This document shows positions 58,475 to 64,000 of a stretch of 64,000 nucleotides of DNA, piece after piece; position 1 is the stretch's first letter; the number at the start of each line of letters is the position of its first letter. The stretch lies in contig CBDDBZ010000036.1 in the NCBI GenBank assembly GCA_965225945.1, positions 160,001 to 224,000 on the forward strand, in the 5' to 3' direction. The notes beneath the pieces were generated by a model. It did not search any database. It worked only from the letters and a program-made list of their open reading frames with translations, and was not told the DNA's origin. The DNA is from Alphaproteobacteria bacterium (GTDB lineage Bacteria > Pseudomonadota > Alphaproteobacteria > GCA-2731375). The position numbers and the translations under genes are program-made.

Positions 58475-58862
58475 TGTCAACGGCGGAGAAAAAGGGGCTA
58501 TTCGGCGGTTTTATAGAGCGCCACCATCGCTCTGGCAGCTTGTCCACGTAGTCCACGGCAGGGACCTGTGGGCCCACGTGGTCAAGCGTTGGGGCGTGGT
58601 CTGTCCGCTTTAGCTTTCTTGGAGGCGCGAGCCTGCTTGAGGCGGTAGCTCTCGCCGTTGCATTCGAGAATGTGGACGTGGTGCGTGAGCCGGTCCAGGA
58701 GCGCGCCGGTGAGCCGCTCGGAGCCGAAGACCTCGGTCCATTCATCGAACGGCAGGTTCGAGGTAACCAGGATCGAGCCCCGCTCGCATCTTTGAGAGAA
58801 GATCTCGAAGAGGAGTTCGGCGCCGGTCTTGGAGAGCGGCACGAAGCCGAGTTCGTCGACGC
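58475..58862 (-). mobile_element. istB: IS21-family remnant: istB 3' half plus right end
   Basis: VDELGFVPLSKTGAELLF..TSNLPF.EW..ALLDRLTHH..GESYRL; end TGTCAACGGCGGAGAAAAAGGGGC at 58475. Confidence 0.85.
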
Positions 58863-59041
58863 GGAGGATGGACCGTGGCGCCGGTGGCGCCGCGTAAGCC
58901 ATCCGACAAGAGGCGGTATTTCGCTTGTTGTTAGCGGTGGTTCCAGGGTGCGCTTATATGGTGCTCTTTTTGAGCGGTCGGTGGCGGTTGGCTGACGGGA
59001 TGCTTTTGGGCTTGGCTGATTTTGTTTCGCGCTGTGGCTAT

Positions 59042-59933
59042 TCAGTCGAGGGGCCGGTCATCGATCTGGAGCGGTTCGCCGGCGCGGTCGCGCATGAGCA
59101 TGTCGTTCCAGTCCAGGGCGTCGAGGGCAGGGCGCAGGCGGACGACCCTGCTGTCGTTTCGGATGAGCCGTGCCGCGGCGTCATCGCCCTGGCGGGTGGC
59201 GTCGTAGGCGCAGAAGATCCGGCCGGGGTTCCAGGCCTCGATCCATTCGGGGAGGCTTGCGGTGGCGCCGCCGGTTGAGACCACGGCGCATCCCTTGCGC
59301 CCGGCCGGGACGAGGTGGAGGGAGAGGACCGACAGGGCGTCGATTGCGTTCTTGGCGAGGATGACGGAGTTCGGCCAGTCGGGTTCCCACGACATCCAGA
59401 AGCCGCCGCGCGCGGCGGCGCCGGTCGGCGCGAGGCGGCGTGGCGCCGCGGCCGGCGAGGCTCTCGGCGCCGAGAGCCTCGCCGGCCGCGTTTCGGCGGA
59501 CGAACACGGCGTTGCCGTGGCGGTCGGCGTAGAGCAAGCCGAGGTCGCGGCACAGGGCGACGAGCACATCCGCGAGGCCGCGCTGCTCGACGAGGTAGCT
59601 CTGGATGGCGGGCCAGTGGCGGTCCGGGCACGGCGGCTTCGGGTGGCGATCGGCCGGGAACCGGTCACGGCACGGCAGTTCCGAGAAGAAGCCGAGGGCC
59701 TCGGGCACGGTGCACCGGCAGGCATGGATTACCAGGTCGATCGCTCCGCCCCCGCCGCGCAGATGTTCGTAGAACATAAAGCCGTTGATGCTGACGACGG
59801 ATCCGGGACGCCTCCAGCGCGCGGCATCGGTGGGATCGCGGCGGTAGCCGAGGCGGCGGACGACGTCTTCGAGGGGATAGCCTCGCAGGGCCTCGGCCCG
59901 CACCCGCCGGTCCCAGAGGCGGGGACCATCCAT
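59042..59933 (-). pseudogene. DUF3991/Toprim (primase-like) protein, frameshifted
   Basis: N-terminal L..LGY..D...W...F.E...GGGAIDLV.H and YL...RGL...LYAD..GNAVF. C-terminal ..AIDALS, VSTGG, I.CAYDA...GD.AA and DWND.L. Spread over ORFs 59181-59933 and 59042-59725. Confidence 0.78.
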
Positions 59934-59935
59934 GG

Positions 59936-60724
59936 CTACGCCGGCGGCGGTTCCCCGCGGTCCTGCGCGCCGGCCTTGCCGGCTCGCCGCCGGCGGCGCT
60001 CGGCGCTGCGCTGCTTCTGGCGTTCCTCGGCCTCCTTGCGGCGCCAGGACTCGGCGTCGATGGCGATGATCTCGGCGTTGTGGACGAGGCGGTCGACCAG
60101 GGCGACGAGGCAGGCGGCGTTGGGGAAGGCCTCACCCCACTCGGCGAAGGGCCGGTTGGTGGTGATTATGGTGGAGTTCTGCTGGCTGCGGCTGGAGACG
60201 ATGTTGAACAGCAGATCGGCATGGCGGTTGCTGTAGGACAGGTATCCGACCTCGTCGATCACCAGCAGGTGCTGGCGGGCGTAGAAGCGCAGCCTGCGCT
60301 GAAGCAGGGTGTCGCTGTCGAGGGCGGCGAGCTCGCCGAGCATGCTGGCCGCGGTGGCGAAGCGCACGGTGTGGCCCTCGAGGACGGCGCGGTGGGCGAT
60401 ATTGGCGGCGATGGTCGACTTGCCGACGCCGTTTGGGCCGACCAGGACGACGTTGGCGGCCTCGTTGAGGAACTCGAGGCTCATGAGATCCTCGACGGCC
60501 ATGCGGTCGCAGCGGCGCGGCCATGCCCAGTCGAAGTCGGCGAGCGGCTTGAACTGTCCGAGGCGGGCGTCGCCGAGGCGGCGCTTGAGGCTGCGGCTTC
60601 GCCGTTCCTCCTCTTCCCAGGCGACCAGCGCAGCGGGCCAGTCATGCCCGGCGACCTCGCCCCAGTGGGCGGCGAGGCCGTGCAGGCCGAGCGCCCGGGC
60701 ACGGCCCATGAGGGTATCGTTCAT
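59936..60724 (-). CDS. istB: IS21 helper ATPase IstB
   Basis: [26 protein letters not shown] and LVDRL.H motifs; ATGA overlap with istA. Confidence 0.95.
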
Positions 60725-62226
60725 TGCTCGCTGTCCTCCTCGGGTTCGCCGGCCAGCCCGTCGTATCCGACGAGGTCGTGATCGCGGACAGTGATGTCGC
60801 GCACTCTCGGATCGCCGGGCAGTTCGACGGGGATGGGCGGGGGTTGGTGCCGCAGCTCGCGCCGCCGGGTCAGGCTCAGGCGCACGGCGTTGGGATGGGG
60901 AACGTCCCGCTTCAGGGCCTCGTCGATGGCCGCCTCGAGCTCGGCGGCGCCGTAGGCGTCGAGGAGGCGCAACAGGGCGGCGACGGTGGCGCCTATATAG
61001 CCGCCGCGCTGGGCGGCCTCGGCGAGCAGGCGCTCGCTGTTGGGCGCGGCCTGGACCAGCCGGTCCTGGCCGCGAAGGCGGCGGGCATGGCTCTTGCGCC
61101 TGACCAGCTCGGCGATGTGCTCGGGGTTCTCGATGCGGGCCGCCTTGTCGAAGCTGCGCGGATGGCTGGCGATGACGTCCACACCGTCGAGGATGCGCAC
61201 CTCGTCGAGCGTCGCGACCACGACGAGGGTGCGCCGCACATGGGTGTGCGGCACGCTGTAATCGTTGAGATCGAAGCGGGCGTAGGGGGTCTTGCCGATG
61301 GCGACCTCGACCCGGTCGTGGTCGGGGAAGGGATCGCCGGGCAGCGCGATGAGAGAGCCGCGTTCCCGCTCGAAGGCCTCGCGCACGGTGATCGAGCGGT
61401 CTTCGGGCCAGGGGCGGTCGGCGGCGATGCCGTGGCACCAGGCCAGGGCCTGGGCGTTGAGATCGTCGATATCGCGCCACCGGCGGGCGGCGAAGAAGCT
61501 GGTCCGGACATAGCGAATCGCCCGCTCCACGCGCCCCTTCTCGTTGCCGCGCGCGACCGCGACGGGCTTGGGCAGGAAGTGGTAGTGGCCGGCGAGGTCG
61601 AGGATCCGGGGATTGAACCGGATGGCGGCGCCGCGGCGCTCCAGCACGACGCTCTTCAGGTTGTCGTACCAGAGCTCGCGGGGCACGCCCTGCCACGCCT
61701 CGAAGGCTTCGACATGGCCGCGCAGGAAGTTGCTCATCCCGGCGTCGAGGTAGAAGCGCAGGAAGATCCGCCGCGAGTAGCTGAGAACCATCACGAAGCC
61801 CATCAGGCGGCGCTCCGCGCGGCCGATCGTCACCTTGCCGAAGTGTCCCCAGTCGACCTGGGCCTGCTCGCCGGGAAGGGTCTTGAGGCGCAGATAGGCC
61901 TCGGCCACGGGCCTGGGCCTGAAGTGGCTGAGCAGATGACGGAAGTGGTCGCCGCCGCCCGGATAGCCGCGTTCGCGCACCATCTGGTAGAGCCGGCTGG
62001 CGGGCAGCGTCGGCCAGGATGCCAGCGTCTCGGCGATGAACGGCACGTATGGATCGATCATCGACGGCCTGGGCGACCTCGCGTCCCGGGGCTCGCCGGC
62101 CGCGGTGAGGAGGCGCTCGACGGTGTAGCGATGCACGCCGAGCTGGCGTGTGATCGTGCCGACCGTCCACTTCTCGACGTGATACAGGCGAAGGATCTCC
62201 GCGCGGGTCTCCTTGTCGATGGTCAT
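60721..62226 (-). CDS. istA: IS21 transposase IstA
   Basis: N-terminal [29 protein letters not shown] and NDYSVP motifs. Confidence 0.96.
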
Positions 62227-62663
62227 CTCACCCCCTTTCCCGTCGGGCGCAGCCCCGGATAGACCGCCTGCCCGCAGAACCGGCCGCAGCGATCGCAGCG
62301 GAAGACCCTGGCGGGCCGCTCGTGCCCGAAGGGCCGTGTTCCGGGACGCCCTGCCGGCGTCCGCACCACAACAGGACGCCGCCGCGCGGCGGTCAAAGGG
62401 TGATGCGTCACTTCCTGCCCGCGGCGCCGATTCACCGGCGTCCGGCGCCGCCGGCGTTCGCGATAGCGCCGCTGGCGCTCAGCATGCTTGTGACGGCCCC
62501 GCCGGCTGTTCTGGTAGCGCTGCCCGGCATGGCGCTGCGATCGCCGGCGCACCCGATCGCTGCAGCTCCGTGAACAGTAGATGTTGCCGTGGTCGCAGTG
62601 CCGGCAGAGAACCACCTGTTGATGGCACGAGGCGCAGTTGAACAGGCGGGCGGTGTTCTTCAT
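62223..62663 (-). CDS. Cys- and Arg-rich hypothetical protein translationally coupled to istA
   Basis: CxxC-x5-CxxC-x6-CxxxC, basic helix [12 protein letters not shown] and a C-terminal CDRCG; ATGA overlap with the istA start. Confidence 0.8.
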
Positions 62664-62893
62664 CGCGCAGCCGATGAGAACGGGCTGGACCCACGCCCAA
62701 ACCCGCACGATACTGCGCATATGGGTCGTGCCTTGCATGGCTTGGGGGGTGCGGTGCCGGTCGTTGCCAGCAAGCAAACGGGGCCGGCGCCGCATCGTTC
62801 TCAGCGGCCCGAGTGTACTCCCGCGGCTCCCCTTGTCAGGTCCGCGGAACCGCCGCCGCCAGCCAGCCAAAACAGGAATCGAGACGCCCGCCC

Positions 62894-62961
62894 GCGGTGG
62901 ATAAGCAGCCCGCCGCCGCCAGACTCTTGGCGGTCGCTGCGGCGAGCTACTTACCCACCGC
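62894..62961. other. Long imperfect hairpin in the leader of the IS21 element
   Basis: gcggtggataagcagcccgccgc pairs with gcggcgagctacttacccaccgc; inner stem cgcca/tggcg. Confidence 0.6.
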
Positions 62962-63090
62962 TGCGCCGAGCCAACTCCCGCCTGCAAACCACGCAGCTAC
63001 AGCGCCACGATGCCCGATGTCGCTGAAATCACCATCTAAGCGCGGTTTTTCATCGCCACCGACAGCTAGTGTACCGACTCTAACGCCTGT

Positions 63091-63152
63091 TGTGGAACGG
63101 CGTGCAAAGTTGACCCCTGTTGAGGGGTGATCGGCGTCCAAATTTGACCCCC
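63091..63152. mobile_element. End of another IS21-type element, interrupted by the IS3-like insertion
   Basis: TG start and a repeated GGCGT.CAAA.TTGACCCC motif, typical of IS21 multiple terminal repeats. Confidence 0.65.
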
Positions 63153-64000
63153 TGTATCGCACCCGGTTCCTTGGGCACAAGTTTGTCTCATGCGGCGGGC
63201 CTGAGTGACATCGCGGTGTGCCACGCCTGACGAGCTTGAGCGGGGCTCAGGTAGCCGTTCTTCTCCACGATCCACTGGGCATTGTACTGTTCGACGAACC
63301 CGCGGACGGCGTTCCGCAGCTCCGCGATGTTGCGGTAGATGCGGCCATGGATGATCTGTTCCTTGAGCGTGCGATTGAACCTCTCGGCGACGCCGTTGGT
63401 CTGGGGCTGTTCGACGAAGGCGTAGGACGGCTGGATGCCCCAGAACTTGATCTGGTTGGTGAAGTGGTCCGACAGATACTGGGAGCCGTGATCCATCCGC
63501 AAGGCCAGCCCCCGCGCCGCACCGGCGGAGGTCGAGGCATACAGCCTCGCAAGCCCCATGGAGATCGGCTGAAGGGCGGCGAAGCGGTCGCCTCGCTTGC
63601 ACACATGCCAGCCGACGCACTCGGCGTTCCAATGCTCGATGGCGGTGAATATCCAGCCCCAGCCGTCGTCCACCGTGAACACCCGAACGCCGTCCGTGCC
63701 CCACATGAGGTTGGGGGCATGGGTGATGATCTCACCGACATGGGGATTTCCGCCACGGCGGCGGCAGCGATGGGGCGAGAGCAGGTTGTTCTCGCGCATC
63801 ACCCGGAGCACCCGCTTGCGGGAAACACGGATGCCACGACAGACCCGAAGCCGAGCCCAGACCTTGCGGTGTCCCTCGCCCTCCCAGGGGGATGCCTCCA
63901 GGTCGGCCTCGATGGCCACCAGCAGAGCCTCGTCCGAGATCGAGGGCTTCGGTCCCCGGCGCTTTGCTGGTGGGCGCTCAGCGGTGGCCTGCTGCCGGGA
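63153..64000 (-). mobile_element. IS3-like insertion sequence (right end plus transposase, stop codon at 63188; runs off the window)
   Basis: G.RKV...LR...VSRKRV.R.MRE, W.TD, DHGSQY and NGVAERFNRTLKE (DDE); TG end at 63153. Confidence 0.9.

Follow-up and report, generated by a model that had tools for sequence, protein, structure and literature searches.

Insertion sequences (ISs) of the IS21 family have inverted repeats that start with TG and contain repeated sub-terminal motifs, and they produce short direct target duplications of 4-8 bp. The AAA+ partner of their transposase, IstB, is presumably related to the helicase loader DnaC. A DDE transposase and an AAA+ partner that work with further dedicated proteins are also found in Mu, Tn7 and Tn5053/Tn552. 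IS21 is described as encoding the two proteins IstA and IstB, and IstB is likened to MuB and TnsC (PMC12486865). The locus analysed here is situated near the end of a 64,000-nucleotide stretch of DNA from an Alphaproteobacteria bacterium (assembly GCA_965225945.1, contig CBDDBZ010000036.1, positions 160,001 to 224,000), which is called the window in the following. It is a bounded, recently active mobile element of the IS21 family with four genes, all of them inside the inverted repeats: a Cys/Arg-rich open reading frame (Cys-rich ORF), istA, istB and a gene with DUF3991 and Toprim domains (Toprim gene).

Element organization, ends and copies

The host genome (6.27 Mb, 39 contigs) was searched using BLAST and contains 19 full-length copies of the element (4133-4166 bp, 98.99-100% identity), all of which share exact termini that correspond to window positions 58929 and 63064; two copies split by other DNA and fragments were found besides. 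Exact direct repeats of 5 bp (n = 7), 6 bp (n = 5) or 7 bp (n = 3) flank 15 of the 19 copies. Each terminus starts with TGT, and both share the 14-nt block GCGCTTA[G/T]ATGGTG at offset 22, while on the side of the right inverted repeat (IRR) the motif GTCGGTGGCG recurs 49 nt inside the element end. The element thus has the ends of an IS21 member and, in the 15 flanked copies but not in the window copy, also its target duplications. Four ORFs inside the ends depart from the two-gene content of IS21, and since this content was taken as typical and not as defining, the element was filed as a variant member of the family.

An initial annotation of the window sequence had placed the element at 58929..63064, with TGT ends and the common block at equal offset, and had described a leader of about 400 bp with a long hairpin ahead of one tight operon in the order Cys-rich ORF, istA, istB and Toprim gene. 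All of these points are borne out by the termini of the 19 copies, the leader fold and the ORF coordinates. The junctions consist of an ATGA overlap between the Cys-rich ORF and istA, a second ATGA overlap between istA and istB, and 2 bp from the istB stop to the Toprim start. The Toprim gene is confirmed to lie inside the true ends, and in the related loci L036-L039 a homologous ...GCTAACA right end is likewise found about 100 bp past the Toprim stop.

Family assignment was made using NCBIfam and Pfam models (Table 1). IstA scored 249.1 bits against NF033546 transpos_IS21 (cut-off 160) and matched Mu-transpos_C_2 (6.1e-22), with HTH_23 and rve slightly below their cut-offs. IstB scored 204.3 bits against NF038214 IS21_help_AAA (cut-off 200), and NCBIfam also lists a weak DnaC match. 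The 401-nt leader contains a long near-perfect hairpin, its minimum free energy being -206 kcal/mol compared with -191 +/- 6 kcal/mol for shuffled sequences (z -2.4; 1 of 100 shuffles was equally good). A promoter scan of the leader returned one site, CTGACA-16-TACACT, with 0.2 expected, which is a consensus match only.

Table 1. Coordinates of the element features in the window (copy at 58929..63064).
Feature	Position	Strand	Remarks
Left inverted repeat (IRL), gene-upstream side	63030..63064	-	sense reading TGTCGGTGGCGATGAAAAACCGCGCTTAGATGGTG; same end base in 19 copies
Leader	62664..63029	-	hairpin about 62865-62985; sigma-70-like site 62812-62839
Cys/Arg-rich accessory ORF, 146 amino acids (aa)	62223..62663	-	start is the ATG conserved in homologues; stop overlaps istA start (ATGA)
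istA, IS21-family DDE transposase, 501 aa	60721..62226	-	NCBIfam transpos_IS21; Pfam HTH_23, rve (both slightly below cut-off), Mu-transpos_C_2
istB, AAA+ helper ATPase, 262 aa	59936..60724	-	Pfam IstB_IS21 1.8e-53; NCBIfam IS21_help_AAA
DUF3991/Toprim gene, DnaG-primase fold	59042..59933	-	frames 59181-59933 and 59042-59725 in the window copy
Perfect 44-bp palindrome	59447..59490	.	window copy only; 100% complementary; holds the frameshifting base
Right inverted repeat (IRR)	58929..58963	-	about 110 bp past the Toprim stop; same end base in 19 copies

ORF defects are absent from 14 of the 19 copies. They affect the Toprim gene in the window copy, istB in C37:18791 (a 4-bp insertion), istA in C25 and C26 (two 1-bp deletions in one copy; the istA ORF missing from the ORF list in the other) and the Cys-rich ORF in C33. 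In the latter (G000:C33:78699-82864) the Cys-rich ORF is fused to istA by an insertion of 25 bp close to its end, resulting in a single frame of 763 aa. Two further copies, G000:C18:73087-77221 and G000:C37:75401-79541, have the same flanks and the same 7-bp duplication AACGTCA and differ by a 6-bp indel in the Toprim gene; they could represent either a duplication of the region or an assembly in which two strains were collapsed.

A near-identical element was found in 20 public sequencing runs from 8 studies, two of the runs being RNA libraries. In runs X1-X16, which include sponge metagenomes and two metatranscriptome libraries, 0.81-0.94 of the sampled words matched. One contig of 4171 nt from an RNA library covers exactly the element, although transcription is not demonstrated by it because DNA carry-over is possible. 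Contigs of four public runs were aligned to the element and did not contain an end-to-end joint, which is uninformative because contigs drop rare forms.

The Cys-rich ORF and its distribution

The Cys-rich protein consists of an N-terminal C-x2-C...C-x2-C...C-x3-C pattern, a basic helical hairpin and a C-terminal C-x2-C-x3-C motif. It had no match to Pfam or NCBIfam models, and a sequence search of the PDB gave nothing meaningful. None of the 218 homologues collected at E<=1e-3 has a Pfam domain. In an alignment of 92 sequences C10, C13, C23, C30 and C34 are invariant, and C20, C123, C126 and C130 are conserved in at least 90%. The AlphaFold2 (AF2) model (mean predicted local distance difference test score, pLDDT, of 73.7) begins with a beta-hairpin pair at the N-terminus, followed by two long basic helices (pLDDT above 90), and ends, after a disordered linker, in a small C-terminal beta element. 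A Foldseek search with this model returned no match at E<=1e-3, the best hit being the YacG zinc finger (E 0.86), and the highest Z that VIA-align reached against 48,161 chains was 5.5, for generic helical hairpins. Neighbours of the protein in the Atlas were unnamed clusters only, and no defence system or known regulator family matched it in the libraries searched, which did not cover PADLOC.

In plasmids the tblastn matches to the Cys-rich ORF fall in unannotated DNA immediately 5' of istA. The ORF adjoins istA in all ten examined members of the IstA clade to which the element belongs, including seven of seven complete loci with an IstA that is 55-65% identical to that of the element (L041, L042, L136, L140-L143; sources Methylotuvimicrobium, Burkholderia thailandensis, B. 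aenigmatica, Alicycliphilus, Mesorhizobium, Rhizobium and genome G568). By this arrangement the Cys-rich gene behaves as a conserved core accessory of a whole IstA clade, and its position, conservation and structural model point to a putative nucleic-acid-binding accessory or transposase regulator. In all 37 plasmid records with an IstA match at E<=1e-60 the product is named 'IS21 family transposase' and nothing more specific, and the Cys-rich ORF is uncalled by RefSeq in all plasmid loci examined, which is why genome annotation would gain from including it.

The Toprim protein and its catalytic residues

The intact Toprim protein of 296 aa scored 36.5 bits against Pfam DUF3991 (PF13154, cut-off 24.5) and a borderline 22.9 bits against Toprim_2 (PF13155, cut-off 22.1), and about 1004 relatives were found at E<=1e-3 among 1.84 billion representatives. 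A PDB sequence search with the protein gave nothing meaningful. Its AF2 model (pLDDT 85.1) was used for a Foldseek search, which returned 25 matches at E<=1e-3 (2au3, E 2e-6; 1dde, E 2e-5), the top matches being the primase domains of Aquifex and E. coli DnaG, T7 gp4 and Twinkle. In plasmids, DUF3991-Toprim sequences usually form the C-terminal part of MobV relaxases or stand-alone genes annotated as 'DUF3991 and TOPRIM domain-containing protein'.

The Glu and the DxD of Toprim domains are critical for metal binding and catalysis (PMC6755086). In an alignment of 32 Toprim sequences the motifs ESAIDALS and D-A-D-x-A-G-D are kept in at least 90%. The element has AKNAIDALS and DATRQGD instead, i.e., Glu is replaced by Lys and DxD by DxT. 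The former Glu position is occupied by K in the element, A in P0121, D in L036 and G in L037-L039, and D-A-T stands in place of D-A-D in the element and every close relative. Most of the non-catalytic conserved positions of the family are kept. The N-terminal domain that aligns with the zinc-binding region of primases lacks a C-x2-C pair throughout the family, as judged by inspection. An active primase or nuclease in this element is unlikely because the Toprim Glu and the second Asp of DxD are lost. Complex prediction for IstB with the Toprim protein gave a score of 0.00 in two runs made without controls and is not evidence on binding either way.

Two N-terminally truncated Toprim paralogues (G000:C30:9313-10140 and G000:C38:323-1150) are 63-67% identical to the element protein, have the K and DAT residues and are not preceded by istB. 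They resemble the lineage of L043 and L044 and appear to be what is left of a second related element.

Conservation and phylogeny of the fourth gene

Metagenome-assembled genomes (MAGs) were scanned with one genome per species, resulting in four contigs, with a 5-bp duplication at one of them. The loci L036, L037 and L038 have the same four genes in the same order (Cys-rich protein 77%, IstA 79%, IstB 84-90% and Toprim 65% identical to the element), all frames open and an istB-Toprim junction of 2-8 bp. Ratios of nonsynonymous to synonymous substitutions (dN/dS, Nei-Gojobori) between the element and these three loci were 0.38-0.47 for the Cys-rich ORF, 0.38-0.40 for istA, 0.18-0.26 for istB and 0.55-0.59 for the Toprim gene. 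All four genes are thus below 1 and the Toprim gene is the least constrained.

The Toprim protein is rare in the genomes sampled. It was found in 2 of 33 genomes of the order, including the host (the second, the same-genus genome G028, has broken remnants only), and in 3 of 401 genomes of the class, in two of them as 40-aa fragments only. In the phylum sample the Cys-rich profile matched 3 of 401 genomes and the Toprim profile 5 of 401. The order, class and phylum counts come from samples and do not prove absence.

The seven sister loci with an IstA of 55-65% identity have no Toprim gene. An acidic ORF of 61-73 aa with a WTPEQA..ELLDDL motif, hypothetical in RefSeq, overlaps their istB stop. 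The possibility that this small ORF is a Toprim remnant was rejected after comparison by eye, the only comparison made, had found no similarity.

Maximum likelihood trees were inferred by quick IQ-TREE searches with support from the Shimodaira-Hasegawa-like approximate likelihood ratio test (SH-aLRT) and midpoint rooting. In the IstA tree (56 sequences) the ten elements with a Cys-rich ORF form one clade (support 100), within which three Toprim-bearing rows form a subclade (support 100) among the small-ORF elements. IS21, IS100, ISSen3, ISPsy4, ISEc57, ISPsy20 and a 2.5-kb IS21 of the host are outside this clade. In the Toprim tree the element clade nests with the stand-alone proteins P0128, P0129 and P0133 and not with the IS21-linked Toprim genes from metagenomes. 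The most economical interpretation is a later swap in one sublineage, with the Toprim gene taking the place of the small ORF, because the Toprim-bearing elements form a subclade among small-ORF elements. It had been proposed that both extra genes are core components, and their tracking of a single IstA clade had been suggested as a check. This proposal holds for the Cys-rich gene, which is present in ten of ten clade members, and fails for the Toprim gene, which is confined to the subclade and missing from the seven sister loci.

Toprim genes behind istB in metagenomes

Metagenomes were scanned using the Toprim alignment, and the best 80 of 406 relatives were analysed, a sample that is biased by the search patterns and by this choice. 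An IstB homologue is encoded directly upstream on the same strand in 70 of these best 80. Of the remainder, three relatives have less than 300 bp of upstream sequence. The other seven differ in context: two are MobV fusions and two are other large fusion proteins, one gene follows an AAA_22 ATPase, one stands alone, and one is a degenerate relative of the element. The IstB-linked Toprim sequences keep LCESAIDA[IL]S and D[AS]D, and the L095 homologue scored 40.4 bits against Toprim_2.

The IstB-linked elements (L048-L122; e.g., L095 1-4988) are about 4.9 kb long. In each of seven inspected loci a Cys-rich ORF1, a ParB/KorB-like ORF2 (tested with Pfam in two), istA, istB and the Toprim gene were found, and a motif search detected the Cys-rich ORF1 in 22 loci. 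Most of 13 loci checked have, outside ORF1 and the Toprim gene, inverted repeats of up to 61 nt with tandem motifs. With 37 rows and a support of 100, the IstA proteins of these elements make up a deep clade of their own. Comparison of the Cys-rich family of the window element with their ORF1 by hhalign gave a probability of 11.9% (E 0.0025, 45 columns). Because this separate clade, which is common in metagenomes, carries one too, the coupling of istB to a primase-like gene is a pattern that recurs, even though the version in the window element is degenerate.

In L046 (267-1954, where a metagenome contig of 35 kb begins) an AAA_22-type ATPase gene is directly followed by a Toprim relative with 40% identity and intact motifs, and the stop of the first overlaps the start of the second. 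This arrangement may be another transposon type that pairs an AAA+ protein with a Toprim module.

Comparison with described systems

The canonical IS21 elements (in RefSeq names IS21, IS100, ISSen3, ISPsy4, ISEc57, ISPsy20) resemble the element in the overlap of istA with istB, in the domains of IstA (helix-turn-helix, DDE and Mu-transposase C-terminal domain) and of IstB (AAA+), and in TG-starting repeats with sub-terminal motifs and short target duplications. They differ in gene content, as the eight two-gene plasmid elements examined, with specific or generic names, show istA and istB only, compared with four genes in 4.1 kb here. The abundant IS21 of the host likewise has two genes in 2.5 kb. 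Canonical IstA proteins are only 27-36% identical to that of the element, which belongs to a clade of its own with the Cys-rich ORF. The plasmid elements of this clade (Burkholderia, Paraburkholderia, Mesorhizobium, Rhizobium, Alicycliphilus, Methylotuvimicrobium) and the element in genome G568 share with it the IstA clade, the Cys-rich ORF and the number of four genes, but their fourth gene is the ORF of 61-73 aa overlapping the istB stop and not a Toprim gene. The elements of about 5 kb from metagenomes are alike in the Toprim gene directly behind istB, in inverted repeats with tandem motifs and in a Cys-rich first ORF. They differ in IstA and IstB (only 25-30% identical), in an intact Glu and DxD, in another Toprim lineage and in the extra ParB-like gene.

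For the Toprim protein itself, DnaG-type primases have the same fold but retain the Glu and the second Asp of DxD that are missing from the element. The MobV-Toprim fusions of plasmids are about 30% identical to it and alike in the Pfam domains DUF3991 and Toprim_2. In contrast to these plasmid modules, the element protein is stand-alone, has no relaxase or helicase domain and is encoded in a transposase operon. Mu, Tn7, Tn5053 and Tn552 are analogous in arrangement, as they also combine a Mu-type transposase and an AAA+ target ATPase with extra element-encoded proteins.

The DUF3991 literature that was located appears to concern conjugation. The initial annotation regarded the architecture as undescribed, and provisionally this stands for the literature searched, ISfinder not having been part of the comparison. 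The interest lies less in the degenerate window copy than in the families that it revealed. IS21 is a structural model for AAA+-dependent transposases and is described as a two-gene element. This picture is extended here by a whole IstA clade in which an unannotated but conserved gene for a zinc-finger-like protein overlaps the start of the transposase gene, by a slot behind istB that holds either a small acidic protein or a primase-fold protein, and by the larger IS21-like elements in which most close metagenomic relatives of the primase-fold protein are found behind istB. If the extra proteins join transposition they would be new players in a well-studied reaction, and whether a transposon supplies its own priming or end-binding factor becomes a testable question.

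Proposed explanation and alternatives

The explanation that we consider moderately probable overall is an active four-gene IS21 element with inverted repeats of about 35 bp, a Cys-rich accessory and a secondarily acquired, non-catalytic Toprim protein. The element has multiplied to about 20 near-identical copies in the host and makes target duplications of 5-7 bp. From what is known of the family it would move by the ordinary IS21 route (PMC12486865), in which IstA acts as the DDE transposase and IstB as the target-capturing AAA+ ATPase. The Cys-rich protein, which in the model has a zinc-ribbon-like hairpin and a very basic helical hairpin, would be made just ahead of IstA and may act on nucleic acid, e.g., at the element ends or the leader. 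The Toprim gene would have been acquired secondarily in place of the small acidic ORF. Its product would no longer prime or cut DNA and may be kept under weak constraint (DNA binding, scaffolding) or be slowly decaying.

Several points weigh against this explanation. Transposition and the protein functions are read from sequence and models, and the putative role of the Cys-rich protein rests on position, conservation and a model without an informative structural match. The dN/dS values given above are rough because dS (0.3-0.45) is small relative to the protein divergence, a likely result of GC-rich codon bias. The trees were quick searches with SH-aLRT support only and midpoint rooting, and a polytomy inside the Cys-rich clade is compatible with an ancestral Toprim gene and several losses. 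Acidic residues near the Toprim site (D244 and GDD at 249-251 of the 296-aa protein) make residual or altered metal chemistry possible. The literature searched contained no description of IS21 elements that carry a Toprim, a ParB-like or a Cys-rich gene, with ISfinder and TnCentral outside the comparison. The highest dN/dS among the four genes, together with the free choice of K, A, G or D at the Glu position, would fit decay of the Toprim gene equally well.

Decay is the core of the alternative in which a single capture would have brought the Toprim gene to the 3' end of the operon, where it lost its activity. As a dying passenger without a role in transposition, it would be carried along only by a young element that multiplies faster than the gene decays. 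We regard this alternative as somewhat unlikely. Besides its dN/dS of 0.55-0.59, which reaches 0.90 between the near-identical L037 and L038 on very few changes, the unconstrained Glu position (K/A/G/D) and lost DxD, the secondary acquisition suggested by the IstA and Toprim trees, and broken or truncated relatives in G028, in host contigs C30 and C38 and in L043 and L044 are all in its favour. A mere passenger would however not be expected to remain an open ORF in 18 of the 19 copies, in L036-L038 and in P0121, to keep its frame despite about 35% protein divergence at a dS of about 0.4 with dN/dS below 1, to retain the tight istB junction (2-8 bp in relatives) or to preserve most of the non-catalytic conserved positions.

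That both extra genes act on the host or on other mobile DNA (replication or topology interference, exclusion, conjugative entry) and not in transposition itself appears quite improbable. DUF3991-Toprim proteins are otherwise typical of conjugative or mobilizable plasmids, as MobV relaxase fusions or stand-alone genes, the fourth operon position swaps between the small acidic ORF and the Toprim gene as cargo slots often do, and the host genome is crowded with competing ISs. The Cys-rich ORF, by contrast, is fixed in place and overlaps istA throughout the clade, it has no match to defence or regulator families in the libraries searched (PADLOC not covered), and no evidence points to a host target. 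The least probable reading, and a highly improbable one, is an active primase that would prime the replication of transposition intermediates, the mechanism proposed in the initial annotation. The DnaG-primase fold and the tight coupling to istB agree with it, and for the elements whose istB-linked genes have an intact Glu and DxD (among the 70 of the best 80 relatives) it would be reasonable. For the window element this claim is not supported, as the change of Glu to Lys and of DxD to DxT affects residues that are critical for catalysis (PMC6755086) and the Glu and second Asp are replaced in all close relatives as well. The zinc-binding-like N-terminal domain has no C-x2-C pair by inspection, family-wide, and sister elements of the same IstA clade lack any Toprim gene.

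A broader proposal that goes beyond the preferred four-gene element with its non-catalytic Toprim protein is put forward tentatively and is, taken as a whole, unlikely. A DnaG-like primase module may have been recruited to a place next to IstB in several deep-branching lineages within the IS21 superfamily. In the clade of about 5 kb, the primase together with the ParB-like and Cys-rich proteins would form an element-encoded priming and partition apparatus that replicates the strand-transfer intermediate or an excised circle without the host restart machinery. The window element would then be a non-catalytic offshoot, and the Cys-rich zinc protein would be a so far unrecognized third core protein of a whole IS21 subfamily.

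The window copy and its surroundings

The frameshift that the initial annotation had noticed in the Toprim gene is real and is caused by an extra C at 59456, which is private to the window copy. In the other 18 copies the Toprim ORF is open, with a product of 296 aa in 6 copies and of 298 aa in 12, and the unshifted form is also present in contigs of four public runs. The window copy differs from these 18 copies by four clustered changes at 59453, 59456, 59459 and 59461. They turn the left arm into the exact complement of the unchanged right arm and an imperfect palindrome into a perfect one of 44 bp. This pattern is, as far as the compared copies tell, the signature of a templated quasi-palindrome (template-switch) mutation.

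The window copy is one of the four among 19 without an exact flanking repeat. The flanks GCTTGT and GCTAGT, claimed earlier as a target duplication matching in five of six positions, were rejected as such. They are parts of two different other ISs, and their likeness is for this reason a coincidence. The left flank (58582-58902, minus strand) encodes a 106-aa C-terminal IstB fragment of another IS21-family element, cut at the insertion point. The right flank (63069-63160) is the terminal-repeat region, with two ..AA[AG]TTGACCCC.. motifs, of the 2.5-kb two-gene IS21 that is abundant in the host, where its IstA type was found by tblastn at several dozen places in the genome. With its Toprim gene apparently broken by a templated mutation and wedged between fragments of other ISs without a duplication of its own, the window copy would be a dead end. 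Further along, positions 63188-64000 hold the 3' part of an rve-type transposase gene from yet another IS, and the end of the window is an IS graveyard.

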